Shown: one piece after another, positions 1,352 through 15,300 of the stretch
Numbering within the stretch: position 1 is the stretch's first letter
Layout: each line of letters starts with the position of its first letter
Virus record (IMG/VR): IMGVR_UViG_3300044535_001920
Coordinates: 603 to 64,602 of that record
Source of the DNA: a virus
Taxonomy: Duplodnaviria; Caudoviricetes
DNA length: 64,000 nt
Reading direction: 5' to 3' (one strand)
Made by a program: the position numbers and the translations under genes
Notes under the pieces: generated by a model
Seen by the model: only the letters and a program-made list of their open reading frames with translations
Told to the model about the DNA's origin: nothing
Databases searched by the model: none

Positions 1352-1711
1352 TTAATCACCATTAATAACTCTAATACTATCTGAATCAAAATGCTGTGTA
1401 GAAAATTCAAATAATTCTGTATCTTCAAGTGCAATCATTTGATGACGAAGACCTCTATAGATGTGATATTTGTCTCCTTTCTCTAATATTATTTCTTTTG
1501 AAGATTCCATTTTGTCCGAATCGCTATACTTTAAGAGAATTTTTCCAGAGTGCAAATAAAATGTTTCATCTTTTAACTTGTGATAATGCCAGGAACATTT
1601 TTTGCCTTTAGCAAAATAAAGAAGTTTTCCACAATACTCTTCATTATTTACAATCCATTTTTCAAATCCCCATCCTTTTGAAACAAATTTAATCTCCGAA
1701 GAATTCATCAT
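1352..1711 (-). CDS. Cupin-fold sugar isomerase-like protein
   Basis: KGWGFEKWIVN, SWHYHKLKDETFY and GLRHQM cupin metal motifs; lies inside the heptose cluster. Confidence 0.7.
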   Translation of the reverse strand: MMNSSEIKFVSKGWGFEKWIVNNEEYCGKLLYFAKGKKCSWHYHKLKDETFYLHSGKILLKYSDSDKMESSKEIILEKGDKYHIYRGLRHQMIALEDTELFEFSTQHFDSDSIRVINGD

Positions 1712-2024
1712 CTTTTATTGCCTTGTCATCAATGTATATATCTGCAGAAGGTTTTCCCAAAATTAATTCATGGTATTTACAACCCCAAATATCTAACTGC
1801 ATTTTTGTTAATGAATAAAATTTTTCTTTTGCTTTAACTGAATCATCTTTATATCTACCCATACCACGAGCAGTAAAATATTTAATTATATTTCCTTGAT
1901 CATATAATTCATTTATTTTTTTAATTCTATCTAATTTTGGAACACTTCCTTCGTATTTACAAGAAGTGCAATCTCCATTGGTACATATAGTACCATCAAT
2001 ATCAATTACATAAATTTTTGACAT
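1689..2024 (-). CDS. Small capless HAD-superfamily phosphatase
   Basis: Motif I DIDGT, motif II FTARG, motifs III/IV GKPSADIYIDDKA. Confidence 0.8.
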   Translation of the reverse strand: MSKIYVIDIDGTICTNGDCTSCKYEGSVPKLDRIKKINELYDQGNIIKYFTARGMGRYKDDSVKAKEKFYSLTKMQLDIWGCKYHELILGKPSADIYIDDKAIKDDEFFGD

Positions 2025-2766
2025 CTTCTTCAGTTAAAACATAAGTTCCTGGGTGCTGCACTGCTATTGCCGATGCTTTGTTTGCTAGTAAAATTGCATC
2101 TTCAATACTGTAATACCTTAGATAACCATATACAAGTGCTGAAAGAAAAGTATCTCCTGCACCAACTACATCATAAACATTTACCTTCTCTGCAGGATAT
2201 AATTTATTTTTGTAAATACATCCTTGAGATCCTTTTGTTGCAATTAGATTTTTTAAATGAAATTTATTACTCAAATTATTATATTCAAAATCATTTATTT
2301 TGATAAAACAATTTTTTTTGTCTGGTAGACAAGATTTTTTGCTATCAATGAATACGGGAATATCAGTGGACTCAACTATTTCAAATAGTTTATCTGCAGT
2401 TAAAAATCCTTTATTGTAATCAGATATCACAATCGCATCAAAATAATTAAAATCTATACATTCCGTTAGTGGTGAAATTTTATTTTCTTTATCAACTCTG
2501 AGTAGTTGTTGATTGGATTTTTCATCTATAAATCTTGTCTTTACTATTTTTTCTGAATTTGTTAAAAATTCAACAGTTAATCCAAATGATTTTAGATTAT
2601 AAAATACATTTTCTGCCATTCCTGCTCTTTTTTCTATTTTAGAAAAAATCATTACAGGAACAGGTGCTTCAGGACTAATCCTTTCACACCTGCCATAAAT
2701 GTATTCGTCTTCACAACTATCCCCTATCAATAATACTTTGAATGACTTTTGTTGAGGAGTATTCAT
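2002..2766 (-). CDS. hldA: Heptose-7-phosphate kinase (HldE/RfaE kinase domain, PfkB family)
   Basis: IGDSCEDEYIYG-x-CERISPEAPVPV, ISDYNKG, DVVGAGDTF, LANKASAIAVQHPGT. Confidence 0.85.
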   Translation of the reverse strand: MNTPQQKSFKVLLIGDSCEDEYIYGRCERISPEAPVPVMIFSKIEKRAGMAENVFYNLKSFGLTVEFLTNSEKIVKTRFIDEKSNQQLLRVDKENKISPLTECIDFNYFDAIVISDYNKGFLTADKLFEIVESTDIPVFIDSKKSCLPDKKNCFIKINDFEYNNLSNKFHLKNLIATKGSQGCIYKNKLYPAEKVNVYDVVGAGDTFLSALVYGYLRYYSIEDAILLANKASAIAVQHPGTYVLTEEDVKNLCN

Positions 2767-3118
2767 CTATCCTATCGAAAAACTTTAATTCTTTTGCATA
2801 CTGCGATCCTATAACTGGTTTATCTTTCCAATCAGATCCTACTACCATTATATCAGGTCTATAAAATTTGACAAGTTCTTCTAGATCTTCATCGGAATCA
2901 AATGTCCTAACTTCATCAACGTGATATAAATTTGCTAACATAAATGCACGATCTCGGAGAGAGTTAATGGGTCTTATTGGACCTTTCTTTTCTTTAACTC
3001 TCTCATCAGAATCAATTGCAACAATCAAATGATCCCCAAAAGACTTTGCATACTCAAATAATAAAAGATGCCCTGTATGCAGGACATCAAATGTCCCATT
3101 AACAAATACTTTTTTCAT
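2717..3118 (-). CDS. hldC: Heptose-1-phosphate nucleotidyltransferase (HldE/RfaE domain II)
   Basis: NGTFDVLHTGH (HxGH), DSDERVKEKKGPIRPINS, PDIMVVGSDW, YSSTKVI. Start set at MKKVFVN; 3127 is an alternative. Confidence 0.85.
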   Translation of the reverse strand: MKKVFVNGTFDVLHTGHLLLFEYAKSFGDHLIVAIDSDERVKEKKGPIRPINSLRDRAFMLANLYHVDEVRTFDSDEDLEELVKFYRPDIMVVGSDWKDKPVIGSQYAKELKFFDRIDEYSSTKVIQSIIDRG

Positions 3119-4763
3119 TTGGTACATAAATTAGTTTTTTTATTTCTGGAAGATACATATATTCAATTTCACTATTTCTTAGTGTGTTAAATGCATCATC
3201 TAATGTTTCAACGATAGTATCTCCAGCAAGATTGAATGATGTATTGAATAAAATAGGAACACCAGTTAGCTTATGAAACTCTTCAACTAATGTATAATAA
3301 TTTGGATTTTGTTTTTTCTTTAATGTTTGAATTCTACAAGTTCCATCTACGTGAGTTATTGAAGGTATAAGTTTTCTTTTATTTTCCCATACATCAACAG
3401 CATACATCATAAAAGGACTTTCCTCAAGTCTATCCATATCAAACCATTCAGTGCAATTTTCCCATAATACAGTTCCAGCAAATGGTCTCCACCATTCTCT
3501 TTGCTTAACTCTATTGACTATTTCTTTACCATTTTCCACTCTTGGATCAAAAAGTATAGATCTATTTCCTAATGCTCTTGGACCAGATTCTGACCTTCCT
3601 TGATAGATTGCAACTATATTTCCATTTGAAATTAATTCTGCAACCTCTTTTGGTTCAATAAATCTTTCGGATTCATTAGATTCCAATTCGTAATTATACT
3701 GTATTGGCTGTCCTAGATATAAAGTTTCTAGATTTAATGATTTTGGTTCTATATTGTTTTTTATACACTGATTTATATAAGTATATTTTGAAGATCCTAC
3801 TGTAATTCCATCATCAGCACAAAGAGGATCAATGTAAATATTAATATTTTTTGGTAATTTTTTTAATAATTTATAATTTGCTACACAATTCAAAAAACAT
3901 CCACCAGTTAAAACTACATTAGTTTTATTTGTTAATTCCACAGATTTTCTAACAAGATCTGTTATATAATTCTCATAATTTTGCTGTAATTTATAAGAAA
4001 GATTTGAAAGTTTTGAAAAATTTTCGTTAATATCTTTAAATGATGAAATGTAAGGATACTTCAAAAACATAGAACATACATCTTTAATATGATTAAAATT
4101 TGATAATTTGAATAATGATTCATTTGCACCCTTATTTAAAATCATTGGTTTTATTTCATGATCAAATTTACCATATGAGGACATCCCCATTACCTTTCCC
4201 TCCCCATGTGGCCATCCCATAAAATATGCAATAGCAGAATATGCCATACCACAACCTATTCTTTTTTCTTTTTGTACATATTCTGGGGAATTTTCCGGAA
4301 CTAACTCATTGTTGTAACCAACAACTGTTTTGTATATACAGTTAATATCAACTTTTGAATTGAAATCATATATACTTTCATTTTCTTTTCCATATAACTT
4401 ATCTGATCCTGCACTATCAACTACTAAACAAACTCCATCATCAAACCCAGAATTTAAAATGGAGCAGTATGCGTGTAAGTTGTGATGATACCGAGAATGG
4501 TCTATCCATTCTTTTACTTTTACTTTATTTTTTTCTAGTATTTTTTTATATGGACCAAAATATAAATTATTATTATTTAAGTAACTATAAATGCAATAAT
4601 CTATTGAATTAGTATAATTTTTTATTAAATCAATTGAATAAGATAATTCGGTATCATGCTTTATATGAGTTAATCGTTCTTCTTTTAAATGAAGAACGAT
4701 TTCATTATCTTTCAATAAACAAATTGACGCATCATGCGTAATATTTAAACCTAAAATCCACAT
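3099..4763 (-). CDS. Carbamoyltransferase (NodU/CmcH/TobZ family), copy B
   Basis: HDAS, EERL, HHNLHA, EGKVMGMSSYG, GGCFLNCVAN, GRSESGPRALGNRS, RPFA, HVDGTCRIQT, NTSFN. Confidence 0.9.
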   Translation of the reverse strand: MWILGLNITHDASICLLKDNEIVLHLKEERLTHIKHDTELSYSIDLIKNYTNSIDYCIYSYLNNNNLYFGPYKKILEKNKVKVKEWIDHSRYHHNLHAYCSILNSGFDDGVCLVVDSAGSDKLYGKENESIYDFNSKVDINCIYKTVVGYNNELVPENSPEYVQKEKRIGCGMAYSAIAYFMGWPHGEGKVMGMSSYGKFDHEIKPMILNKGANESLFKLSNFNHIKDVCSMFLKYPYISSFKDINENFSKLSNLSYKLQQNYENYITDLVRKSVELTNKTNVVLTGGCFLNCVANYKLLKKLPKNINIYIDPLCADDGITVGSSKYTYINQCIKNNIEPKSLNLETLYLGQPIQYNYELESNESERFIEPKEVAELISNGNIVAIYQGRSESGPRALGNRSILFDPRVENGKEIVNRVKQREWWRPFAGTVLWENCTEWFDMDRLEESPFMMYAVDVWENKRKLIPSITHVDGTCRIQTLKKKQNPNYYTLVEEFHKLTGVPILFNTSFNLAGDTIVETLDDAFNTLRNSEIEYMYLPEIKKLIYVPNEKSIC

Positions 4764-4764
4764 A

Positions 4765-6456
4765 TTAATTCGGAACTCTAACTATTTTTTGAATTTCGGG
4801 AAGATAGAGATATTCAATATCACTTCTTTGTAGTGTGTCAATTGCATCTACGATAGTTTCAACAAGAGGATCTCCACCCAAATTGAATGAAGTATTAAAA
4901 AGGATAGGAACTTCACTAATTTTTTCAAAGGCACTGATTAGATTATAATAGTGCTCGTTTTGTTCTTGAGTTACTGTTTGAATACGGCAGGTTCCATCAA
5001 CATGAATGACTGAAGGAATTTTCTCTTCCACTCCAGGTAAACAATCAACAGCATACATCATATGTGGTGATTCCTCACGGCCAGCAAGATCAAACCAATC
5101 ATTGACGTTTTCTTTCAGAATTGAACAAGCAAAAGGACGGAAGAACTCACGACGTTTTACTTTGTTTACAATATCCTTACCATCCTTAATAGTTGGGTCA
5201 AATAGAATAGAACGATTGCCCAGTGCTCTAGGACCACCTTCGGAACGACCTTGAAAGATGGTTACAATAGTTCCTTCCCGAATCAGTTGTGCAACTTCAT
5301 CATAAGAAGTATCGGAAACTTCTAGACCTTCTAGATAATCTTCATAGGTTTCTGGATCATATTGAGGTCCATAATAAATTGAAGTCTGAGGACTCATAGG
5401 TGCCTCCAGGTCATTCATCTTAGCATAGATGTATTTTGCAGCACCAATTGATGTTCCACCATCATGGGAAATTGGTTCGCAGTAAATGTTAAGATCTGGG
5501 AAAGTCTTCAAATACTTATAGTTGGCAACACAGTTTAGTCCATATCCACCACAAACAACAATATTTGTTTCACCAGTTTCTTCGTGTGCTTTGCGAATCA
5601 ATTCAATCATACGATTTTCAGTATCTCTTTGAACCGCATATGCCATATCTTTTTGGATTTGAGTATATTCACCTTTCTTATGATTTTTGGAATCTTCAAA
5701 TAAGACAGGGAATCTTTCATAGTTGATACGTGATCCATTGGGATAATTGGGCACAAAAACTTCACGGTTTGCCCATTTACCTCTAAACAACTCTGGAAGA
5801 TCTAAGTTTTCCTTTCCATATGGAGAAAGGCCCATAGTTTTTCCAGCATCAATACAAGAAAAACCACAATATTCAGTAATTGCCTCGTATGTTTTGGTGA
5901 GACCTGGATATTCAGTCAAGAAGTACTTTTCATCACCACCCATATCAAGAATACCAACAGGTTCTTTTGTGCCAAGATGCTTATATACAGTATCGAACTC
6001 TAAAGGATACTTTGCCTTAAATATAGTTTCAAACTCGTATGCAACACCCGGGAAAGCATCCCCCTGCAGAAAACTTCCAGCACCATCGGCAATTACACAA
6101 GCAGCAGTCTCAAATCCCGAATTCAAAAATGCACAAGAAGCGTGCAATTCATGATGAATAGTATCAATAAAGTGAGTTTGATACTCAAACTTTTTGCGAG
6201 ATATTTTTCTAATCCATCCTTGATATAAATCTTCACCAGTCCAATCCATTTCTGGACCATGACGATGGGTATGACAAACTACCAAATGATCAATGTGATC
6301 AACATACTCAAATACTTTTAATAATCCAAGAAGAGGTGTTCCGTCATGCTTCCATCTAGAAAGTCTTTCCTCTTCAACATAAAAGATTACTTTGCCATCA
6401 ATAAGCAAAGTGGTGCTAGCATTGTGTCCACGAGCACAGGAAACAATAATACTCAT
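4765..6456 (-). CDS. Carbamoyltransferase (NodU/CmcH/TobZ family), copy A
   Basis: HNAS, EEERLSR, HHELHA, DGAGS, GKTMGLSPYG, GRSEGGPRALGNRS, RPFA, HVDGTCRIQT, NTSFN. Confidence 0.9.
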   Translation of the reverse strand: MSIIVSCARGHNASTTLLIDGKVIFYVEEERLSRWKHDGTPLLGLLKVFEYVDHIDHLVVCHTHRHGPEMDWTGEDLYQGWIRKISRKKFEYQTHFIDTIHHELHASCAFLNSGFETAACVIADGAGSFLQGDAFPGVAYEFETIFKAKYPLEFDTVYKHLGTKEPVGILDMGGDEKYFLTEYPGLTKTYEAITEYCGFSCIDAGKTMGLSPYGKENLDLPELFRGKWANREVFVPNYPNGSRINYERFPVLFEDSKNHKKGEYTQIQKDMAYAVQRDTENRMIELIRKAHEETGETNIVVCGGYGLNCVANYKYLKTFPDLNIYCEPISHDGGTSIGAAKYIYAKMNDLEAPMSPQTSIYYGPQYDPETYEDYLEGLEVSDTSYDEVAQLIREGTIVTIFQGRSEGGPRALGNRSILFDPTIKDGKDIVNKVKRREFFRPFACSILKENVNDWFDLAGREESPHMMYAVDCLPGVEEKIPSVIHVDGTCRIQTVTQEQNEHYYNLISAFEKISEVPILFNTSFNLGGDPLVETIVDAIDTLQRSDIEYLYLPEIQKIVRVPN

Positions 6457-6468
6457 AATTTTACCTCC

Positions 6469-7563
6469 TCAAGATTTAATGTCGTTTATTTCTAAGATTT
6501 GTTCTATTGGTTTCTTTTTATTTGATAATTTTGGTTTTTGAAACCCATTAAAATTTGTTATTGGTAAATTTGATATGGGATTTGATTTCGCAACGTCAAA
6601 ATTACCAGATAAACCATTCAATTTTAATGATTCGTTAGTAACTTTACTTATTCCTATTTTATCTCTAATTGATTTTAATATTTCTTTAATTTTATCATCG
6701 GATAAAACCATGAGATCTTCATTATTTCTATCTCTACACTCATCAAAAGTCATTCTAATTGGACTATATTTTCTTTTGTTCTTTCCATTATCAATGACAT
6801 AAAAATTTTTTTCATTTGGGTAAGAAATATTCTCTGGGTATGTTGACCCAACTACAATTGTTGACGGTTTATTTAGTGCGTAAGAAATATGTTGACCTAC
6901 ACTATCACACCCCAGAAAATAATCGGCAGCATTTATAATTCCTGCCCATTGAGGTAAGCTAACATTTTGGGGCATTGCTATTCCGAGTTCTTGCCAATTT
7001 GGTATTTCTATCTGGGACATCAATATTACACCATAATTTTTTTTCAACTCTTCAATTATTTTAATAACATTGGCAACTTCAAAACTTCTTCCACTTGCAT
7101 CAAATATAAAATTTCTTTCTGCTTGAACACTACTTCCGAATGGTTGAAAAATAACAATCTTATCTTTTTTTGTTACTTCTCTAACTTCGTTAACGATATT
7201 ATGTCCTGTAATTTGTTCAGATTTATTTAATTCTAAATTTATTTTTTTATTTTTTGGTACATCTGTTAACTCATTAATAATAATATCAAATGCTTGGATT
7301 AAATTGCATTTTTGATTAAAGTATGCATTTAATCTATATGGTTCTGGAGATATAATTTCTTTATCTTTTAAATGCTTTTCAAAAAGATCTTTATGATTTA
7401 CTGGATAAACTTTATCTCGTAAAATTTTACTACAAGAATACAGTTCATGCCATCCCTCAGAAACAATTACAAAATCTTCGTTTTTTTCTGCGTATGATTC
7501 TAATGCTGGCATAGAACAAAGAACTCTCCCTGCACCACCATTAATAAAAAATGCCTTATTCAT
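6469..7563 (-). CDS. Glycosyltransferase family 9 (heptosyltransferase-like, GT-B)
   Basis: N-terminal GGAGRVLCSMPAL aligns with WaaC SMGDVLHTLPAL. Also IFQPFGSS and ADYFLGCDSVGQHISYALNKP (GT9 DSG-x-x-H-x-A-x-A-L motif). Confidence 0.75.
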   Translation of the reverse strand: MNKAFFINGGAGRVLCSMPALESYAEKNEDFVIVSEGWHELYSCSKILRDKVYPVNHKDLFEKHLKDKEIISPEPYRLNAYFNQKCNLIQAFDIIINELTDVPKNKKINLELNKSEQITGHNIVNEVREVTKKDKIVIFQPFGSSVQAERNFIFDASGRSFEVANVIKIIEELKKNYGVILMSQIEIPNWQELGIAMPQNVSLPQWAGIINAADYFLGCDSVGQHISYALNKPSTIVVGSTYPENISYPNEKNFYVIDNGKNKRKYSPIRMTFDECRDRNNEDLMVLSDDKIKEILKSIRDKIGISKVTNESLKLNGLSGNFDVAKSNPISNLPITNFNGFQKPKLSNKKKPIEQILEINDIKS

Positions 7564-7605
7564 TCAAGATAAATCCTCAATGGTTTATTATATCAATGTC
7601 AAAAT

Positions 7606-7613
7606 TATTTATT
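7606..7613 (-). promoter_or_regulatory. T4-type late promoter-like motif (AATAAATA) upstream of GT9
   Basis: One mismatch to TATAAATA, in the intergenic gap ~45 nt before the start; weak in an AT-rich genome. Confidence 0.4.
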
Positions 7614-7618
7614 AGTGT

Positions 7619-8182
7619 TTAATTCATCCAATATTCTGGATATTCTTTTATATTTTTATCAAAAATATCCATAATTAAATGAATTCTATTTTCTGTACTA
7701 TGATTTTCCACACTGTGAGAATTTAAATTATTAATTTCATAAATTTTTCCAACTTTCATATTTTCTCTCATATTACCAACAGTAAAAAATACATCTTGAT
7801 TTGTCTTAATTGGAATATGCAATCTATGACCTAACTCAAAGTATCTACTTCCACCATCAGTATGAGCATCAATCATACCCTTTGGTTTAAGGTTAACAAT
7901 TAACGCAGTATAATCTTTTATTTCATAAAAATTTGAAAGAACTTTTAAATATTGATCAATAAAAGGTTTATAAAAGTCAAACATTTCATAATTTACAAAT
8001 TTAAAGTTATTAAAATCCAAATTTTTTACGTGTCTCAAACGGATTGTTTCAGTAAATCTATGAACCTCATATACTTTCTGTCTAGTGGTATCAATCTTCC
8101 AATGACCTTTATCTATGGAATCTAGCAATAAATTGGATAACTCTGAATCAATATCACATAGTTCCTTAATCTCAAATGTCAT
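7619..8182 (-). CDS. Aspartyl/asparaginyl beta-hydroxylase-like 2OG-Fe(II) oxygenase
   Basis: IDAHTD (HxD), RLHIPIKTN, GKIYEINN, HSVEN, RIHLIMD. Confidence 0.8.
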   Translation of the reverse strand: MTFEIKELCDIDSELSNLLLDSIDKGHWKIDTTRQKVYEVHRFTETIRLRHVKNLDFNNFKFVNYEMFDFYKPFIDQYLKVLSNFYEIKDYTALIVNLKPKGMIDAHTDGGSRYFELGHRLHIPIKTNQDVFFTVGNMRENMKVGKIYEINNLNSHSVENHSTENRIHLIMDIFDKNIKEYPEYWMN

Positions 8183-8874
8183 AATTCATATCCAAAAAAA
8201 TTAATTTCAGTTTTAACTGCTTGAAATATTTCTTTTCCTATTTTAAACACATTATCTGGAATTTTTTTATCAAAGTTTGTAATTTTATTTTCTTTGTATT
8301 GTTTTACTGGACTACTTTCTAAATCTAGATCAAAATCCTTTATTTCTAAATCTTTAAAAATTATATTAATTTTATCTTTATCGTAAATCATATCTTCATA
8401 TTTTATTACTTTATCAGTATATGAAAAATAATTTTTATACTGTTCAAAAAAACAAGATGCAACGTGCCCACACGCACGATCTATAGAAATATCTGGTCTT
8501 AATTTTAAAATAGAAGTAACAATTTGGTATGGATTTCTTACTTGAATAATAAACTTTGAATTTTCAAAATGCTTTTTGAGCATATGTGCTCTTATAACAT
8601 TTGGGGGGGATTTCTCAACTTTAATTAAATCTTTATCCCAGTATAAATTCCAAAGATTTTTAATGGAATCCCAATCGTAATTTTTTTCTAAAGCAAAATC
8701 ATGATATCGTTCAGTAAACATGTAAGGACAGTTTAATGCAAATGGATTTGGACCAGCAAATCCTTGTATAAATTGACCCTCATCAGGCAAAGTTGTTGTG
8801 TATTTTGATTGCCTTATTTTCTCGTAAAGGATACTAGACCCAGAATTATTAACTGATAATAAAAATAAATGCAT
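8179..8874 (-). CDS. Sulfotransferase family protein (degenerate PSB loop)
   Basis: FLLSVNNSGSSIL, EKSPPN, IIQVRNPY, IKYEDM. Confidence 0.7.
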   Translation of the reverse strand: MHLFLLSVNNSGSSILYEKIRQSKYTTTLPDEGQFIQGFAGPNPFALNCPYMFTERYHDFALEKNYDWDSIKNLWNLYWDKDLIKVEKSPPNVIRAHMLKKHFENSKFIIQVRNPYQIVTSILKLRPDISIDRACGHVASCFFEQYKNYFSYTDKVIKYEDMIYDKDKINIIFKDLEIKDFDLDLESSPVKQYKENKITNFDKKIPDNVFKIGKEIFQAVKTEINFFGYEL

Positions 8875-8892
8875 AATATAAAATAGTATAAA

Positions 8893-9975
8893 TCATTTAT
8901 AACAAATGCAAACCATTCCTGCTCTTCCCATATCTCCACAACCTCCATAGTTATTGCTCTTGGATATATTTGGTGCTCCACCTGCTCCGGGAATTTGAAG
9001 GTATCCACAACAAGCACTAAAACAAACTCCACGGCACTGCCCACTGTAAGAAAAACAACATTGGGATGTTGATTCAAAACCATAAATTGGTGGATGTATA
9101 AAATATCCGTTTGCAGCAGTATCCCAACATGCTCTATTCCATATCCCCCTAATTCCATAAACTAATGCATTAGATGTAGTTGCACCAAAATAACTTGCTC
9201 CTGGAACATAAGGTATCTCACCGCAACTAGCACAAGATCCTACAGAACAAAAATGACTTCCACCATTACACATAGTCCAACCAGCATAATTTGAAGCAAC
9301 TTGTGCCATTCTTCTTGGGTTTCTTCTTCCGTAAGATATTGACCAAATTCCCATTCTTCCTTGCCCACCATTAGCACAGAAATTTATTAATCCAGTTCCT
9401 TGTACGTATGAAGGGCATCCTGGAAATCTATTAGCAGCAAATCTACAAGGGTAACAAGCAAGAGCACATCCAGAACAAATTGTATAAGTTTGTCCTGCAG
9501 TAACTGGAATAATTACTGACGCATATGCTCCTGTTGAACCAAATGGATTAGAAGAGCAACAAGCACCACCACTGCCCCCACCACCAGCACCCCAAAGTTG
9601 GAATCTGGCACAAGTTACACCAGCAGGAACTGTCCAAGAACAAGATCTACCATAATTAAATTGTGCGTTTCCTGCACATCTACAAACTTTAAAACCAGCA
9701 GTCCATCCAGAACCAGTAGGAATGCAAGCCCAAAGAGCAGTTTGTGCAGGGTTTCTAAGTAACGATGGTTCTATTGTAGAAGTCCAGCAAGATGCTTCTG
9801 GACCTATTGCAGCAGCAGTTGATTGTAATGCTGATACTTGTGAGCACAATGTACTCAAGCAAGTATTGCTATTGGATAAGCAAGTTGATCTAATTGGCAC
9901 ACAAGCAGTTTTTTCTATGCATTGTGTTATTAAATATGCTTCTGCATTTGTTGCACTATATCTTAATACATCCAT
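8893..9975 (-). CDS. Cys-rich, Gly-rich virion/fibre-tip-like protein (paralog 2)
   Basis: 33 Cys in 360 aa by manual count; WTVPAGVTCARFQLWGAGGGG, GAYAS and PGAGG...GRAGMV motifs of the phage Gly-rich domain. Confidence 0.6.
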   Translation of the reverse strand: MDVLRYSATNAEAYLITQCIEKTACVPIRSTCLSNSNTCLSTLCSQVSALQSTAAAIGPEASCWTSTIEPSLLRNPAQTALWACIPTGSGWTAGFKVCRCAGNAQFNYGRSCSWTVPAGVTCARFQLWGAGGGGSGGACCSSNPFGSTGAYASVIIPVTAGQTYTICSGCALACYPCRFAANRFPGCPSYVQGTGLINFCANGGQGRMGIWSISYGRRNPRRMAQVASNYAGWTMCNGGSHFCSVGSCASCGEIPYVPGASYFGATTSNALVYGIRGIWNRACWDTAANGYFIHPPIYGFESTSQCCFSYSGQCRGVCFSACCGYLQIPGAGGAPNISKSNNYGGCGDMGRAGMVCICYK

Positions 9976-9980
9976 TTTAA

Positions 9981-10622
9981 TTAACCCTCATGTCCCGGAA
10001 TTTTTGAAAATTCTACAGCAATATCTAAAGGTATTTTTGGAACATCTCTTGAAGGTATATTTAAATACTTCCAGGGCATTACTAGTTGAGGATTATCAAT
10101 AATATTGTCTAATTTTGAAAGATATTCATTTATTTTTAAATCAATATCATTACCGAAATCATATTGATTATAGTATTTTAAAATATATTCCTTTCTCTCT
10201 TTTGCAATGGGTACTGCTGGATCAAATAATTCTCTAAGTATCTGTTTTAATTCCCACTCGCCTGTATCAAAATTATAAAATAGTTCATATATATCAGTTA
10301 AATCCGGATTTAATGGATTTTTATAGATATCACCATTTTCCATCTCAATATCTTCAAATTCATATTCAATAGTAGGATTATCTAAAAAATAATGATTTAA
10401 CAAATATGCAGCAGCAGGATCTTTTTCTGGATCAATTCGTTTTATTAAATTTGGATCCATATCATCAGTGATCCTTGGTTCAATATAACGAATTGCACCA
10501 GAATGCTCTAGGAATACCGTTATTAATTCTGGACCATCATATTTAAAAGTTCCTTGTATTTTTCCGGAAACTCCCTCCACATACAATTCATCTGGTATGG
10601 GATAGGTAAACTCCTTTATCAT
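9981..10622 (-). CDS. Hypothetical acidic protein, possible fibre assembly chaperone
   Basis: Cys-free acidic ORF between the two Cys-rich paralogs; C-terminus (YLSKLDNI..PWKY...PKIP) resembles tail-fibre assembly proteins; has its own late promoter. Confidence 0.45.
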   Translation of the reverse strand: MIKEFTYPIPDELYVEGVSGKIQGTFKYDGPELITVFLEHSGAIRYIEPRITDDMDPNLIKRIDPEKDPAAAYLLNHYFLDNPTIEYEFEDIEMENGDIYKNPLNPDLTDIYELFYNFDTGEWELKQILRELFDPAVPIAKERKEYILKYYNQYDFGNDIDLKINEYLSKLDNIIDNPQLVMPWKYLNIPSRDVPKIPLDIAVEFSKIPGHEG

Positions 10623-10643
10623 TTTTTTCTGTCTATTTTTGAT

Positions 10644-10651
10644 TATTTATA
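10644..10651 (-). promoter_or_regulatory. T4-type late promoter TATAAATA
   Basis: Exact consensus ~22 nt upstream of the start at 10622. Confidence 0.75.
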
Positions 10652-10671
10652 AAATTTATTGAGTATTTTGA

Positions 10672-11730
10672 TTATTTGTATGAAACACAAACCATTCCCA
10701 TTCTTCCTGCATCTCCAGCACAGTTTAATGCACCACCGCACTTAAATCCTGCCCAACCACCTGCACCTGGTATCTGCATAAATCCATTTACAGCAGCTCT
10801 TGAACAACCTTGAATGTCATTGGTGGCCAAACAACAGGTGCAGCAAGAATTTGATGGGAAACCATAAATTGGAGGATGTCCTACGCAAATACCACCACTA
10901 CTATTTACACCCATCAATCCAAATGAACCTCTTATTCCATATACTGTTCCTCCTGTCGCAGTTCCAAAAAATGTTTTACATGAAGAAATCATTGGCATTA
11001 TATTATCACCGCAGGAATTAACTAAAGCATTATAGTTCCAACAAAAATCTGATCCAGCATTACACAAACATCCAAACATTACGCAGTAACCACAAGTTGC
11101 ACCAATTATACCTCTAGTAATTGCTTCACAGAACATACTACCTTCACCACCTTCTGCACAGAAATTATTTAAATTGCATCCGGTTGCACAAGATGGACAT
11201 CCATCAGCATCATTTTGTGCTCTACAAGCATAACAACAGTTGGCACATCCAGCACAAAGGTTGTACGTCCATCCTGCAGATACTGGTATTATAACTGATG
11301 CATATGCACCTGTTCCTCCAATAGATGATCCACCACAGCAGCAACCAGAACCTGTCCCAGCACCTGCACCCCAAAGTTGGAATCTGGCACAAGTTACACC
11401 AGGAGGAACTATCCATGTGCAGGAGGAACCGCATCTAAAGTTTCCAGAAGTGTCGCACACTTTAAAACCAGCAGTCCATCCAGTTCCTTCTGGTATTAAA
11501 CACCATACATGTGCTTGATTTGGTCCCGCATTTGCGACTAAACCTACAGCATTTGCTGCAATTTGTGATTCCGCACAAGAACAGCAAGCAAGTTGTGTAG
11601 TAATAGAACCTTGAACAGCAGTTATAGATGAATTAAGATTATTAATACAAGTTTCTAATCCAGCAACTGCAGTTCTTGTTGGCTTAATATTTGCATTTAA
11701 TGCATTATATGCTAAAACATCTATTGTCAT
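10672..11730 (-). CDS. Cys-rich, Gly-rich virion/fibre-tip-like protein (paralog 1)
   Basis: 38 Cys in 352 aa by manual count; same motif series as 8893..9975; N-terminal coiled-coil-like segment. Confidence 0.6.
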   Translation of the reverse strand: MTIDVLAYNALNANIKPTRTAVAGLETCINNLNSSITAVQGSITTQLACCSCAESQIAANAVGLVANAGPNQAHVWCLIPEGTGWTAGFKVCDTSGNFRCGSSCTWIVPPGVTCARFQLWGAGAGTGSGCCCGGSSIGGTGAYASVIIPVSAGWTYNLCAGCANCCYACRAQNDADGCPSCATGCNLNNFCAEGGEGSMFCEAITRGIIGATCGYCVMFGCLCNAGSDFCWNYNALVNSCGDNIMPMISSCKTFFGTATGGTVYGIRGSFGLMGVNSSGGICVGHPPIYGFPSNSCCTCCLATNDIQGCSRAAVNGFMQIPGAGGWAGFKCGGALNCAGDAGRMGMVCVSYK

Positions 11731-11732
11731 TT

Positions 11733-12005
11733 TTATGCCCTCGTGACTGAAGTTACATCACCGGCAGCATCGTAGGTGATTGTTATTGTGTAAGAAGAAG
11801 ATCCTATAGTTTCAACATAACCAGTAATTTTATTTTCAACATCATATGTAATACTTGACAATCTCTTATCCCCATAAGTAACAGAAGTTACTCTCCCATT
11901 ACCATCTAATGTCATATCAGTAGAACGAGTGTATGGTCTTGTTCTAAAATTATATGCTTCTTCGTCGGGATTTCTATATGGAATATTTCCAATATATCTT
12001 GCCAT
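11733..12005 (-). CDS. Small YD-repeat-like protein
   Basis: TYGD, TYDVENKIT and TYDAAGDVTSV beta-hairpin repeats. Confidence 0.5.
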   Translation of the reverse strand: MARYIGNIPYRNPDEEAYNFRTRPYTRSTDMTLDGNGRVTSVTYGDKRLSSITYDVENKITGYVETIGSSSYTITITYDAAGDVTSVTRA

Positions 12006-12383: not shown

Positions 12384-15300
12384 TTACGAAATACCCATAA
12401 AGTATGAGAATGTCCTTGTTCTATCAATACTATCAGTAAGTTGTTTAGATGTAATTCCATCAAGAAAATCAGCATTCAAGTTTGTAACAACAGTAGAAGA
12501 ACCAACTGAAATTGGAGCAGTTCCTTGAGCAACGTTAGATACAAATCTAGTTGCAGTGACAACACCACTAACTGGAATACCATTATTGAAGGTAACATTA
12601 CCAGTAAAAATTGGATTAGTAGTTTGATTAAATGCACTTCCATTACCAATAAGAATTGCACCTATTGAAGGAAGACCCGTTAATCCAGTTCCACCCTTAG
12701 TGATTGGAACGGCAGCAGATAAGTTAGAAGGATCAATATAATATGCTGGGGTTTGTCCACCAAGGGTTGCTGCATCAACATCACCTGTGGTTGAATTCTT
12801 TATGCTTACTGCACCATCAGCACCAATTGAGAATGTTGACGATTTAAATTTAGCAATTCCGAGAGTTGAGAATAAATCAACGGAAGATGCAACACGATTC
12901 AGTTGAATATTAATATTTCCATAATATGTGGTAACACCAACTCCTCCTGGTGGAGAATCAAAGGATGTTGCGGTTACTGTCATTGGTTGTGTTGTTCCAA
13001 TACCAACACTCTTAACAACTTTTAGATATGCAGAGTTTCCTGCCAAGAAAGTATCTTGTGATGCAGATCCAGAACCTAATCTAGTTGGAGAAATTGTTCC
13101 GGAAATAATATTTGCAGCATCAATATCAGATTTAGCAAGCAAGGACCAATTTTCTTCCAATGCAGATGAAGTATTAACTGTTTCAGAATATCTTACATTT
13201 TGCTTTGTAAGTGTAAGTGTTGTTCCAACTCCTTCGGAAGTAATTCCTACGGGATTTAGAGTAATTCCATTTGCCGATTGTGTCGCATCAGATTGTGTTG
13301 TGTGGAATGTAAATGAATTTGTAGTTGCTGAACCAACATAGTAGAAATTGTTAGTTGTTATTCCTGTTGGTGTTGATCCAGATACTCTAACAACATCTCC
13401 TGTAAGGAGTCCGTGATTTACAAATATTAAAGTATCTTTACTTTCATTGATTGGGAATCTATCAAATCTGTGAGTTCCACTTCCACTTGATGTCAATGAA
13501 ATTGGAGATGATACAGCATAAGTATTATGAAACTCAACAGAACTCAGTCCAACTCTCTTAATATAGTAAGTGTTTCCATCTATTAGTCCACCAATTGTAT
13601 TCCCACCATTACTATTATAAATAACTGGATCTCCATTCGAGAATCCTGTTTGACTTACGACAATTCTATTATTGAAGAAGTCAACACTACCACCAGTATT
13701 AATATCTGTTGGATCAAATGTTCTTCCAATTCCAACTGTTATATTTGTAGAGATTCCAACTGCATCCCTATCTTGAATATAATCGGGAAGTATAGTGGTT
13801 CCTGGGAACTTTTGGTTATTTGTAAGTTTTAAATAAAGACGAGTTTCTACATCAGAAACAGTAATAGAGAAGTTTGCACCACCAGACCTTCCACCAATAG
13901 AAGAAGGATTTGCAGTCAATAAGTTTCCAACGGCATAATATCTACCACCAGTGTTGATAGCAACATTAGAAACTGTACCAGCAGCACTAACTGTAATTGT
14001 TGCAGTTGCACTAGTTCCAATTCCAGTAGTTGAAGTGAGTGTAACTCCAGTATAAATTCCAGCTGCCAAATAACCAGAACCACCAGTTAAAGTACTGAAC
14101 TGGGTAAGAACACCTTTAACTAAACCAGTAGTTCCATATGCAACAGAAGTTGGAGCAGTAACAATACCAATAGAAGATGCCTGGGATAATGAACTATTTA
14201 CAATATCGCCGTTCAGGAAATTATAATTTCTTGTATCACTATCAAGAATCAAATATTCTTGAACAGTATCTTGAACAAGTACATATGAATTTTCTGGTTC
14301 TGCAACAGTATCACCTTGTCTAATATTTCTTGCTGGAATAAAATTAACTAAGGATGTTTTTCCTCCTATTGTAGTTACCGTAATAAAGTTTACAACTTTT
14401 GGTGGAATTAGATCAGCATTAATTTGACCAGATGAATTCAGTTTAACAATAGCATTTGGAATTGCGCTTGTACTTACATTTTGGTCAATAAAATCACCAA
14501 GTCTGTTATTTAAAAATGTTCTAACTGCAAGCTGTGTAGAAACCCTTCTATTTTGTGGTCCCCCAATCTCTGTCTCGCCTAAATTAGTGTCTATTGAGAA
14601 TTCTTCGATGGCAATACCACCAGAAAGACTCAATCTCAATGAATCTAATTGTCCAATAGTTACCTTATTGTTAAAGATAATATTACCAGTTCTGTTATAT
14701 GCTACAATAAAATTACCAATCTTAAAGTCACCTAATTCATTAGTTCCAGAACTATAAACTCTTCCACCTTGCTCAAATACTTGCTCAGTTTCTGGCCTTG
14801 TTTTTCCTCCATTTTGAGGCAAAGCATTATAATCGGTTCCAGAACCAGAATATTCCCAAGTATGTGATGAAGAGTTAATAATTGATGGTCTATGGAAATG
14901 TAATTTATATGTTTCGGGCAAATCTCCAATATTTGGGATAACATTTCCTGGAATTGTTGAGTCTACTTTTGTTGTAACTGTATAATAAGTTGTAATCCCA
15001 GAAACAGAAGTAACCGCAATAGAAACAGGAGAAGCATTATGGTCTTGAATTGCACTTCCAGATGCAGAGAATAAATTTCTTACCCCTGATACTTCTTCAT
15101 TGGAAACAATTAGTGTTCTTGTTTGTGGTATGTAAGTTAGTGCAATACCAACTGCTTGTCCACCAGTAATAGATTGTGTGACCTGTCTTCCGGAAACAAA
15201 TTTTAATGATGCAGTAGTTGAACCAAGTCCAACTGCTTGATATGAGTTATGAGCACCAATGATTTCAAAGGCAAAGAAATCTTGATTGTTTTTGGTGAAT

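Follow-up and report, generated by a model that had tools for sequence, protein, structure and literature searches.

The marine cyanophage gene at positions 6469 to 7563 of the window (the whole 64,000-nucleotide stretch of viral DNA analysed here) lies next to genes for the tail-fibre tip and encodes a glycosyltransferase-like protein. This protein belongs to a large branch of the GT9 (heptosyltransferase) fold that is, as far as sampled, exclusive to phages. The usual catalytic aspartate of GT9 enzymes is an arginine across this family, so that its way of treating the acceptor is probably one not yet described. Judged from sequence, the protein is likely to be an active, non-canonical GT9 enzyme with a coupled Arg-Glu-Arg site. 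The complete reading, in which an active phage-specific GT9 variant with an ADP-heptose donor and an Arg-Glu-Arg acceptor pocket modifies a fibre adhesin, has a little under an even chance of being correct.

6469..7563, minus strand: GT9-fold glycosyltransferase-like gene (P0001), 364 aa; translation, phrog_8954 (E 2e-146), AlphaFold2, structure matches and hhalign
6472..6624, minus strand: C-terminal tail of this protein, residues 314-364; low confidence, ending in a conserved KKKPI[D/E]xxLE peptide (alignment A1)

The protein begins with MNKAFFINGGAGRVLCSMPAL (translation of 6469-7563, minus strand), and its catalytic core consists of residues 1-305. The AlphaFold2 model (mean pLDDT 89.8) has the two-Rossmann-domain GT-B fold and is closest to solved GT9 enzymes in both VIA-align and Foldseek. 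In VIA-align the GT9 structures match at Z 18.5-23.2, with 3tov at 23.2, WaaF at 21.4, TibC at 19.6-19.9 and WaaC at 19.1-19.5, as against 12.2 or less for other GT-B families. The top 13 among the Foldseek matches listed are all GT9 or TibC. The fold is thus the same as in E. coli WaaC/HepI, WaaF, WaaQ and WaaU (CAZy GT9; Z 19.1-21.4), and a GT9-like fold is also common to this protein and TibC/AAH (BAHT). Residue 1 of the model lies on residue 1 of WaaC, the match extending across ~253 residues. The two proteins are collinear from this point and have the same start of helix 1 (G-x-V-L-x-x-x-P-A-L), although the N-domain of the phage protein is smaller. Residues 314-347 have pLDDT values below 50, and the model suggests that the C-terminal tail is probably disordered.

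Profile comparison gives the same placement. When the family profile (A2, 84 sequences) is aligned by hhalign to an alignment of E. coli WaaC, WaaF, WaaU and WaaQ, residues 1-244 fall on WaaC 1-285 with a probability of 97.2% (E 3.4e-11). Against WaaC or WaaF alone only the C-terminal half is aligned, and the N-terminus is aligned only against the profile of the four GT9 paralogues. The single protein misses the curated family cut-offs (Pfam PF01075, 18.9 bits vs 22; NCBIfam TIGR02201, NF007742 and TIGR02193, 16-21 bits vs 170-467), and phmmer with this protein against PDB sequences returns chance matches only. A precomputed PF01075 match is present in 10 of the 120 homologue clusters listed. 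Megablast of positions 6000-12000 against the phage collection found nothing, and tblastn of WaaC against the same collection found 6 records, which resemble host DNA or contamination and not phage GT9 genes. The family itself is large, with 3151 matches at E <=0.001 among proteins clustered at 90% and 423 among those clustered at 50%. As far as sampled, it is essentially all viral by the Atlas taxa. Cultured phages that carry the gene include P-SSM2, S-SSM7, S-CAM1, S-CAM3, Vibrio SBP1 and Aeromonas HJ05.

GT9 enzymes are textbook inverting transferases, and to our knowledge the base aspartate is conserved in every characterised member. In the phage protein this position lies in a glycine-rich loop.

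7525..7542, minus strand: loop N8-G9-G10-A11-G12-R13 behind strand 1; family motif [D/N]GGxGR, with R13 at the position of WaaC D13 and TibC D110

The first-pass annotation named Asp13 of WaaC as the proposed general base, in agreement with the report that D13A lowers activity 4688-fold and that the residue is present in Hep I-IV (PMC5713226). For TibC D110, equivalent to WaaC D13 by superposition, the D110A variant is described as inactive (PMC4358343). Codon 13 of the phage gene is AGA (7525-7527) and encodes arginine, where TibC keeps its aspartate. Arg13 falls on WaaC Asp13 because the N-terminus is free of gaps in the profile-profile alignment with the four E. coli enzymes, and on the strength of this alignment the two positions are equivalent. 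The annotation had drawn the same gap-free correspondence, and the WaaC residues that it gave agree with the annotated E. coli K-12 record, in which the N-terminus is MRVLIVKTSSMGDVLHTLPAL. WaaC K7, which is described as next to D13 (10.1101/2021.06.16.448588), is replaced by Ile. The stretch 7495-7563 corresponds to the first 23 codons of the gene.

The arginine is very well conserved. It is present in 20/20 close homologues, and 90 distant representatives (24-63% identity) have R in 85, K in 3, C in 1 and S in 1. The 262 related IMG/VR viral loci have R in 258 and K in 4, and Asp occurs in neither set. Arg13 is therefore not a private mutation, which was the objection that the first-pass annotation had raised against its own observation. 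The surrounding loop is similarly constrained, with G9, G10 and G12 each kept in 89/90 representatives and position 8 being D or N in 78/90. The family consensus is IDGGxGRVICA, represented in this protein by I-N-G-G-A-G-R-V-L-C-S.

The donor half of the site shows the GT9 pattern.

7084..7089, minus strand: R159-S160, on WaaC K192 (hhalign); R159 kept in 89/90 representatives
6889..6906, minus strand: donor-sugar motif D220-S-V-G-Q-H225, on WaaC D261-T-G-L-S-H266 (profile against PDB chains, hhalign)

All three donor residues of WaaC (K192, D261 and H266) thus have counterparts in R159, D220 and H225, and the impression of an intact donor-binding motif gained from the single sequence holds. 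D220 and H225 are each kept in 88/90 representatives. In WaaC, K192 is reported to contact the donor pyrophosphate and the anomeric centre, and K192A lowers activity 926-fold (PMC5713226).

Two further positions vary together with residue 13.

7336..7344, minus strand: E74-P75-Y76 motif behind N-domain strand 4; E74 kept in 86/90 representatives, P75 and Y76 in 90/90
6754..6756, minus strand: R270 in the Y-x-P-I-R loop of the C-domain, in perfect co-variation with R13

Among the 90 representatives, 85 have arginine at both 13 and 270, five have it at neither, and none is mixed (Fisher p 2e-8). The IMG/VR loci show the same pattern, with 257 R/R, 4 K/G, one gap and no mixed pair. E74 deviates in 4/5 of the representatives that lack R13 and in 0/85 of those that have it, and K13/D74 pairs occur in loci L187-L189. 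Each sequence without R13 is closer to an R13 relative (33-55% identity to the nearest) than to the others without it (21-35%, L187/L189 excepted), which argues for about seven independent changes at residue 13. In all seven lineages Arg270 is lost, and in five Glu74 is changed. These counts demonstrate that, at the level of sequence variation, Arg13 is evolutionarily locked to Glu74 and Arg270. The variants still have R159 or K159, D220 and H225, so the trio varies independently of the donor core. Strand 4, which precedes E74, would neighbour strand 1 in the Rossmann sheet, and this strand order together with the co-variation suggests that R13, E74 and R270 lie close to one another. E74 is a candidate for an alternative base or for a salt-bridge partner of R13. 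The first-pass annotation had allowed that another acidic residue might occupy the base position, and Glu74, being both conserved and coupled to residue 13, may be such a residue.

The gene lies in a run of genes on the same strand, which is headed by a tail fibre gene and includes both adhesin-like and sugar-related functions.

12384..18242, minus strand: tail fibre protein, 1952 aa; heads the same-strand gene run, in synteny with PSSM2_301 of P-SSM2 ('phage tail fiber-like protein')
10672..11730, minus strand: Cys-rich fibre adhesin paralogue B, 352 aa, 38 Cys; candidate acceptor (model fold match)
9981..10622, minus strand: 213-aa protein between the adhesin paralogues; no Pfam family, travels with the adhesins in 34/80 related loci
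8893..9975, minus strand: Cys-rich fibre adhesin paralogue A, 360 aa, 33 Cys; N-terminal helix then glycine-rich domain (phrog_35878, E 7e-73; weak Pfam Gly_rich_2)
8179..8874, minus strand: sulfotransferase-like gene (PF13469, E 9.7e-6; 26.4 bits, just under the cut-off of 27)
7619..8182, minus strand: Asp/Asn beta-hydroxylase-like 2OG oxygenase, directly upstream of the glycosyltransferase gene (PF05118, E 1.9e-13)
3099..6456, minus strand: a pair of NodU/CmcH-type carbamoyltransferases in tandem, immediately downstream of the glycosyltransferase gene (PF16861, PF02543)
1352..3127, minus strand: ADP-heptose supply genes, comprising the following four
2717-3127, minus strand: HldE domain II adenylyltransferase (TIGR02199, E 2.5e-32)
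2002-2766, minus strand: HldE domain I kinase (TIGR02198, E 3.1e-45)
1689-2024, minus strand: HAD phosphatase (TIGR01689, E 5.9e-9)
1352-1711, minus strand: cupin (Cupin_2)

A carbamoyltransferase accompanies the glycosyltransferase gene in 78/80 close loci, HldE-I-like genes are found in 32/80 and HldE-II-like genes in 26/80. From this gene context, with HldE-like kinase, adenylyltransferase and phosphatase all in the window, the enzyme probably uses ADP-heptose. The Asp/Asn beta-hydroxylase-like gene is present in only 1/80 close loci. In 42/108 family clusters, other ORFs resembling 2OG oxygenases are found no more than 2 kb from the glycosyltransferase gene, a raw count for genes that are plentiful in cyanophages. 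The tail-fibre neighbourhood is shared by P-SSM2, S-SSM7, Aeromonas HJ05 and Vibrio SBP1/D505.

The two Cys-rich neighbours are, from modelling, Pam3 gp24-like adhesins of the tail fibre that contain a glycine-rich domain. The model of paralogue B is of low confidence (pLDDT 59.4) and serves for fold matching only; its residues 84-352 match the Pam3 fibre 7ypx_A at Z 13.4 (187 residues aligned) and the Bxb1 tail tip 9d93 at Z 12.4. The Pam3 gp24/S16 gp38 adhesins are described as having an N-terminal helix, one TNF-like and one glycine-rich domain, as in the Cys-rich proteins of the window, and the fibres of Pam3 virions as being disulfide-linked (PMC9942802). Cysteine makes up 9-11% of the window's adhesins. 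About 11 of the cysteine positions are conserved or nearly invariant, including a CxxCxxCC stretch, while many others show no positional conservation. The conserved cysteines are more likely structural, since Pam3 virions have disulfides in proteins of this fold class. However, the Pam3 disulfides as described link one fibre cysteine to the baseplate wedge, and not a Cys-rich adhesin domain of the kind found in the window (PMC9942802).

The association with Cys-rich neighbours, to which the first-pass annotation had pointed, is real but not universal. A Cys-rich ORF is present in the loci of 76/108 family clusters, mostly directly upstream of the glycosyltransferase gene on the same strand, and in most of these clusters the latter lies 50-3000 bp downstream of it. 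The proportion of Cys-rich ORFs drops with distance from the glycosyltransferase gene, from 88/458 within 2 kb to 5/151 beyond 6 kb. These figures come from naive ORF calls on a non-random sample, consisting of the best 80 loci per pattern scan (sub-alignments A1, A3, A4 and A5). The neighbour is seen again in S-SSM7, P-SSM2, Aeromonas phage HJ05 and Vibrio schitoviruses. In P-SSM2 the glycosyltransferase is PSSM2_307 and its adhesins are PSSM2_304/306, and in S-SSM7 the corresponding genes are SSSM7_120 and SSSM7_114-116. On the side of the G-D enzymes, the comparison of neighbourhoods covered the E. coli waa locus. The remaining 32/108 clusters keep a basic residue 13 (Arg; Lys in four) without a Cys-rich neighbour, and adjoin instead ribonucleotide reductase, 2OG oxygenases, a sulfotransferase, fused HldE or neck genes. 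The adhesin can thus be the acceptor throughout the family only if these genomes encode it at another place.

For the proposed mechanism, the neighbouring HldE-like kinase, adenylyltransferase and phosphatase genes of the cyanophages would supply ADP-heptose. Arg13, Glu74 and Arg270 would line an acceptor pocket across the domain cleft, where Arg13 and Arg270 may clamp an anionic group on or beside the nucleophile. Either Glu74 would take over as base from residue 13, or a nucleophile that is already anionic would make a base unnecessary. The acceptors would most likely be the Cys- and Gly-rich adhesins of the tail-fibre tip (Pam3 gp24/S16 gp38 type), whose genes lie just upstream on the same strand. 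The adjacent enzymes may afterwards carbamoylate the transferred heptose and, in this phage, perhaps add sulfate to it. Taken separately, the assignment of the acceptor as a fibre adhesin is plausible but somewhat weaker than an even bet. Its closest functional analogy is TibC, which is reported to heptosylate an adhesin using ADP-heptose (PMC4358343). BAHT enzymes are marked by an extra N-terminal region ahead of the GT-B core and by dodecamer assembly. The model covers TibC residues 97-391 only, with its residue 1 on TibC 97; in this alignment the N-terminal part of TibC is without a counterpart in the phage protein, which lacks an N-terminal extension.

A more specific form of this mechanism, in which heptose passes without a base to an anionic nucleophile held between Arg13 and Arg270 on the phage's own receptor-binding adhesins and is later carbamoylated or sulfated, is very doubtful. 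The nucleophile would be a Cys thiolate (giving S-heptosylation), a carboxylate, or an acidic residue hydroxylated by neighbouring 2OG oxygenases. For both forms of the mechanism SenB is a precedent for an anionic acceptor, being described as an inverting, metal-independent GT-B enzyme whose selenophosphate nucleophile sits in a positive pocket that has no classical acid base (PMC11237966). However, SenB has a UDP-sugar donor and a small-molecule acceptor, its detected relationship to the phage protein is the GT-B fold only, and it is absent among the structural matches listed. The first-pass annotation had arrived at an acceptor that needs no base, a thiolate or other anion. The other anion fits the coupling of Arg13 and Arg270, but for the cysteines a structural role is simpler.

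Several other explanations compete with a GT9 enzyme acting on a fibre adhesin. The strongest is that the acceptor is glycan- or lipid-linked, the gene belonging to a phage 'LPS-like' pathway for envelope remodelling or for a carbamoylated, sulfated heptose glycan, with Arg13 and Arg270 binding an acidic sugar or phosphate. The gene lies inside the region of P-SSM2 and S-SSM7 that the literature calls an 'LPS gene cluster', its role being given there as not known (PMC3037559), and canonical GT9 acceptors are described as anionic glycolipids gripped by basic residues (10.1101/2021.06.16.448588). The near-constant carbamoyltransferases, the nucleotide-heptose genes and the sulfotransferases nearby are all consistent with such a pathway, and the clusters without adhesin neighbours retain sugar-pathway neighbours. 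On the other hand, in unrelated phage groups the gene consistently occurs within tail-fibre modules, where it shares the strand of the adhesin gene and is often separated from it by <200 bp, and the annotated stretches around the Vibrio and Aeromonas phage homologues contain no sugar-pathway genes. On balance, a glycan or lipid-linked acceptor is unlikely.

Quite unlikely is a role of the two arginines on the donor side, gripping the leaving ADP phosphate upon domain closure, so that transfer would proceed without a base (SN1-like) or even with retention. Some GT-B fucosyltransferases are known to work base-free, and retention is known among GT-B enzymes whose first loop is G-rich. AtFUT1, which we take to be a base-free transferase, is among the weaker Foldseek matches listed. 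The coupled arginines are placed one per domain, facing the cleft, and the NGGAGR loop resembles the NGGLGR loop of E. coli maltodextrin phosphorylase (malP). In that GT35 enzyme the glycine loop is presumably at the phosphate site and structurally equivalent to the loop described here. The likeness (G-N-G-G-L-G-R-L-A-A-C vs I-N-G-G-A-G-R-V-L-C-S) is at the level of the motif only, and maltodextrin/glycogen phosphorylases are not among the fold matches listed for the model. The canonical pyrophosphate contact is already provided by R159. Moreover, the lineages that lose R13 and R270 keep all of the donor-core residues, which fits a change of acceptor better.

The possibility that the enzyme is an S-glycosyltransferase, transferring heptose onto Cys thiolates of the Cys-rich neighbours with Arg13 stabilising the thiolate so that no base is needed, is improbable. 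It would account for an arginine in the base position throughout the family and for the fact that most loci have Cys-rich ORFs (8-12% Cys in cyanophages) immediately upstream, and the distant Vibrio and Aeromonas phage homologues are also flanked by Cys-rich tail proteins. The many adhesin cysteines that are not conserved in position are as decoration sites might be. The nearly invariant ones, including CxxCxxCC, suggest disulfides or metal sites instead, and Pam3, which has the same fibre fold, is reported to have disulfide-linked fibres (PMC9942802). The clusters that keep a basic residue 13 in the absence of Cys-rich neighbours also argue against it, as does Glu74, which could be a base, and a thiolate would be a poorer fit for two coupled arginines than an oxyanion (carboxylate, sulfate or phosphate). 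Known peptide S-glycosyltransferases (SunS/ThuS/GccA type) belong to another fold, which counts against this explanation, and none is among the structural matches listed by Foldseek or VIA-align. Finally, the protein might have lost catalysis altogether, its GT9 fold now serving in fibre assembly or as a virion component that binds sugar. The lost catalytic Asp, the location among fibre genes and the match (Z 18.5-19.8) to the GT9-like, presumably non-enzymatic NDH-PSI subunits of chloroplast NDH, a precedent for structural reuse, could be cited for this explanation, but it is highly improbable given the strong conservation of donor-site residues over 24-63% identity and the association of the cyanophage gene with ADP-heptose synthesis genes and a carbamoyltransferase.

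The preferred reading remains that of an active, phage-specific GT9 variant, most likely acting on a fibre adhesin. A full-text literature search, with subscription journals outside its scope, found no paper describing a phage GT9 with Arg in place of Asp. A whole family has exchanged the GT9 base Asp for Arg yet keeps the donor site, which raises the question of what activates the acceptor, and three specific residues (R13, E74 and R270) are offered for mutation. Since the gene occurs in cultured phages, next to genes for fibre-tip adhesins, glycosylation of receptor-binding proteins by marine phages can be tested, and the purpose of the long-unexplained cyanophage 'LPS gene cluster' becomes testable as well. 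If true, base-free transfer to the adhesins would be a new protein-glycan linkage on the host-recognition tips of abundant ocean viruses.

The window, drawn from a 64.6-kb viral fragment, belongs to a T4-like cyanomyovirus. Its heptosyltransferase-like gene (GT) begins MNKAFFINGGAGRVLCSMPAL, where codon 13 is AGA (7525–7527). The single GT sequence matches Pfam PF01075 at 18.9 bits, below the cut-off of 22 and over residues 201–259 only; it scores far under the cut-offs of the NCBIfam heptosyltransferase models, and phmmer finds no real match among PDB sequences. It does match phrog_8954 (E = 2e-146), and the family comprises 3151 homologues at E ≤ 0.001 (423 representatives at 50% clustering). 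An 84-member family profile reaches WaaF, WaaC and a Veillonella GT9 in the PDB via the C-terminal motif (E 0.008–0.36), and hhalign against four E. coli GT9 paralogues places residues 1–244 on WaaC 1–285 (probability 97.2%, E 3.4e-11). The AlphaFold2 model (pLDDT 89.8, with a disordered tail at 314–364) retrieves only GT9 and TibC structures as top Foldseek matches, and VIA-align gives these Z 18.5–23.2 versus at most 12.2 for all other GT-B families. The fold and probable chemistry are already known ones. In residues 314–364 (6472–6624, minus strand) a variable, low-confidence linker leads, in the cyanophage members, to a conserved terminal peptide of basic and acidic residues, KKKPI[D/E]xxLE...KS, that may serve to dock a partner protein.

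The start of WaaC as given in the first-pass annotation matches that in the annotated E. coli K-12 genome (MRVLIVKTSSMGDVLHTLPAL). By hhalign, R13 falls on WaaC D13 with no gaps at the N-terminus, the equivalence being one of alignment, and residue 1 of the GT model aligns to WaaC residue 1. D13 is described as the proposed base and is found in Hep I–IV, with activity falling 4688-fold in D13A, 2027-fold in D261A and 926-fold in K192A (PMC5713226); the equivalent base in TibC is D110, and D110A is inactive (PMC4358343). Both accounts agree with the role as general base that the first-pass annotation gives as proposed for Asp13. A preprint describes D13 as strictly conserved, with K7 beside it (10.1101/2021.06.16.448588).

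In GT, Arg is found at this position in 20/20 homologues at 58–81% identity. The 90 full-length representatives, which reach down to 24% identity, have R in 85, K in three, and C and S in one each. IMG/VR yielded 264 loci, of which 262 carry a GT gene; 258 have R (231 read directly, 27 after extension of ORFs with non-ATG starts) and four have K. Asp is absent from all three sets, so the Arg is not a private mutation. The surrounding family motif is [D/N]GGxGR; a similar loop, NGGLGR, occurs in E. coli MalP. No ATG precedes the GGxGR loop in 27 of the 262 genes (e.g. loci L109, L112, L116, L117, L120 and L144), and automated gene calling that begins at the first ATG would lose the motif. No description of the family-wide Asp-to-Arg change was found in full-text-searchable literature. 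Part of the record named Campylobacter phage A11a (MG065691.1) is 100% identical to E. coli K-12 WaaC and looks like host or contaminant DNA.

Residue 13 does not vary alone. E74-P75-Y76 is the strongest N-domain motif besides the loop (E in 86/90 representatives, P and Y in 90/90), and R270, in the C-domain, is kept in 85/90. The five representatives without R13 are the same five without R270, and four of them also lack E74; all 85 with R13 retain both residues (Fisher p = 2e-8 for R270 and 2e-6 for E74). The IMG/VR set comprises 257 R13/R270 sequences, four K13/G270, one gap and no mixed pairs, with D74 in three of the four K13 sequences. The non-R13 sequences are 33–55% identical to their nearest R13 relative versus 21–35% among themselves (the pair at loci L187 and L189 excepted), which indicates about seven independent events. 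The donor motif, claimed to be intact, indeed aligns as R159 on K192, D220 on D261 and H225 on H266, with 89, 88 and 88 of the 90 representatives retaining these residues. The non-R13 variants also retain them (K for R159 in one). On this sequence evidence, we interpret residues 13, 74 and 270 as one functional unit apart from the donor core, most likely an acceptor pocket. From the fold, E74 would lie after strand 4, adjoining strand 1 of the Rossmann sheet, which makes it a candidate base or salt-bridge partner and bears on whether another acid occupies the base site. Neither this coupling nor a tie to fibre adhesins was found described in full-text-searchable literature.

The genes around GT are as follows.

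Genes in the window, in order along the minus strand
Minus strand, first in order: tail fibre gene, 1952 aa
Minus strand: two small ORFs, between the tail fibre gene and Cys-rich protein B, including one of 90 aa (11733–12005)
10672–11730, minus strand: Cys-rich protein B, 38 Cys
Minus strand: 213-aa protein, between Cys-rich proteins B and A
8893–9975, minus strand: Cys-rich protein A, 33 Cys
7619–8874, minus strand: sulfotransferase-like, then Asp/Asn-hydroxylase-like gene, between Cys-rich protein A and GT
6469–7563, minus strand: GT, 364 aa, with R13 near its start
3099–6456, minus strand: tandem pair of carbamoyltransferase paralogues (554 aa and 563 aa)
Minus strand: HldE-II adenylyltransferase, then HldE-I kinase
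Minus strand: HAD phosphatase
1352–1711, minus strand: cupin, within the heptose gene set
Minus strand, last in order: second sulfotransferase

P-SSM2 has the same gene order. In the annotated stretch around GT, P-SSM2 has one carbamoyltransferase and S-SSM7 two. The 11733–12005 ORF has a marginal RHS-repeat match (E 1e-4, 22.9 bits versus a cut-off of 22). Both PHROGs and the S-SSM7 record call the cupin a 'cysteine dioxygenase', and it matches only generic Cupin_2 and WbuC-like models; because no GmhA-type isomerase was seen, an isomerase or epimerase acting on sugars is a possible alternative.

A 15-member alignment of the Cys-rich proteins contains seven invariant and four nearly invariant Cys, including a CxxCxxCC stretch. 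Modelling gave low overall confidence (pLDDT 59.4), but residues 84–352 match the fibre of cyanophage Pam3 at Z 13.4 over 187 residues; the tail tip of Bxb1 scores Z 12.4, glycine-rich domains of ALK score about 8, and the next match has Z 5.0. The Pam3 fibre is described as resembling the S16 gp38 adhesin: a helical stalk plus a TNF-like and a glycine-rich domain. Together, these matches and this description identify the Cys-rich neighbours as predicted fibre-tip adhesins. In the glycine-rich domain, the two adhesin paralogues of the window have in common a CC pair and a conserved C-A-G-C-A-x-C-C stretch, a spacing that would also suit a metal site.

The best 80 loci, many on incomplete contigs, contain a carbamoyltransferase in 78, an adhesin-A-like gene in 54, a B-like gene in 35, HldE-I in 32 and HldE-II in 26. 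The hydroxylase of the window occurs in one, each of its two sulfotransferases likewise in one, and the 7619–8874 insert is shared with only one of the 80 (L003). Other 2OG-oxygenase-like genes adjoin GT in many distant loci and, by raw count, lie within 2 kb in 42/108 clusters.

These clusters group the 262 GT genes, collected in four scans, at 70% identity. At least one Cys-rich ORF (naively called, at least 150 aa with at least 4% Cys) occurs in 76 of the 108, mostly on the same strand and directly upstream of GT, and 54/108 have a detectable homologue of the adhesins of the window. The Cys-rich share of all ORFs of at least 150 aa drops with distance from GT: 88/458 under 2 kb, 51/326 at 2–4 kb, 17/252 at 4–6 kb and 5/151 beyond 6 kb. 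S-SSM7 carries three Cys-rich paralogues (261–264 aa, 10.6–11.5% Cys) in the interval from the tail fibre gene to GT; in Aeromonas HJ05, the gene directly upstream of GT encodes 559 aa with 23 Cys. Directly downstream of GT lie 'Tail' proteins with 41 Cys in both Vibrio SBP1 (925 aa) and Vibrio D505 (1756 aa). However, 32/108 clusters keep a basic residue 13 (Arg; Lys in four) without a Cys-rich neighbour, and adjoin ribonucleotide reductase, 2OG oxygenases, sulfotransferase, fused HldE or neck genes. The proposed link between R13 and Cys-rich genes therefore stands for the majority of clusters and fails for these.

Among the alternatives, the published hypothesis for this gene cluster is an 'LPS-like' pathway (PMC3037559), in which the acceptor would be a glycan or lipid; this appears unlikely to us beside the frequent adhesin neighbours. 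A base-free or retaining mechanism, with the arginines engaging the leaving phosphate, would accommodate R13 and R270 but seems somewhat less probable again. S-heptosylation of cysteine by GT would draw on the abundance of Cys next door; it is improbable, and the Pam3-like fold, together with the reported disulfide linkage of Pam3 fibres, makes structural cysteines the simpler reading. Structural reuse of a dead enzyme, set beside the retained donor residues, is very improbable.

SenB, described as an inverting GT-B whose basic pocket holds an anionic acceptor, provides a precedent for the anion idea. Our leading, though tentative, interpretation is that GT may be an active GT9 variant using ADP-heptose, whose Arg13-Glu74-Arg270 pocket would take an acceptor that is anionic or unusual in some other way, the fibre adhesins being its most likely carriers, with carbamoylation following sugar transfer.
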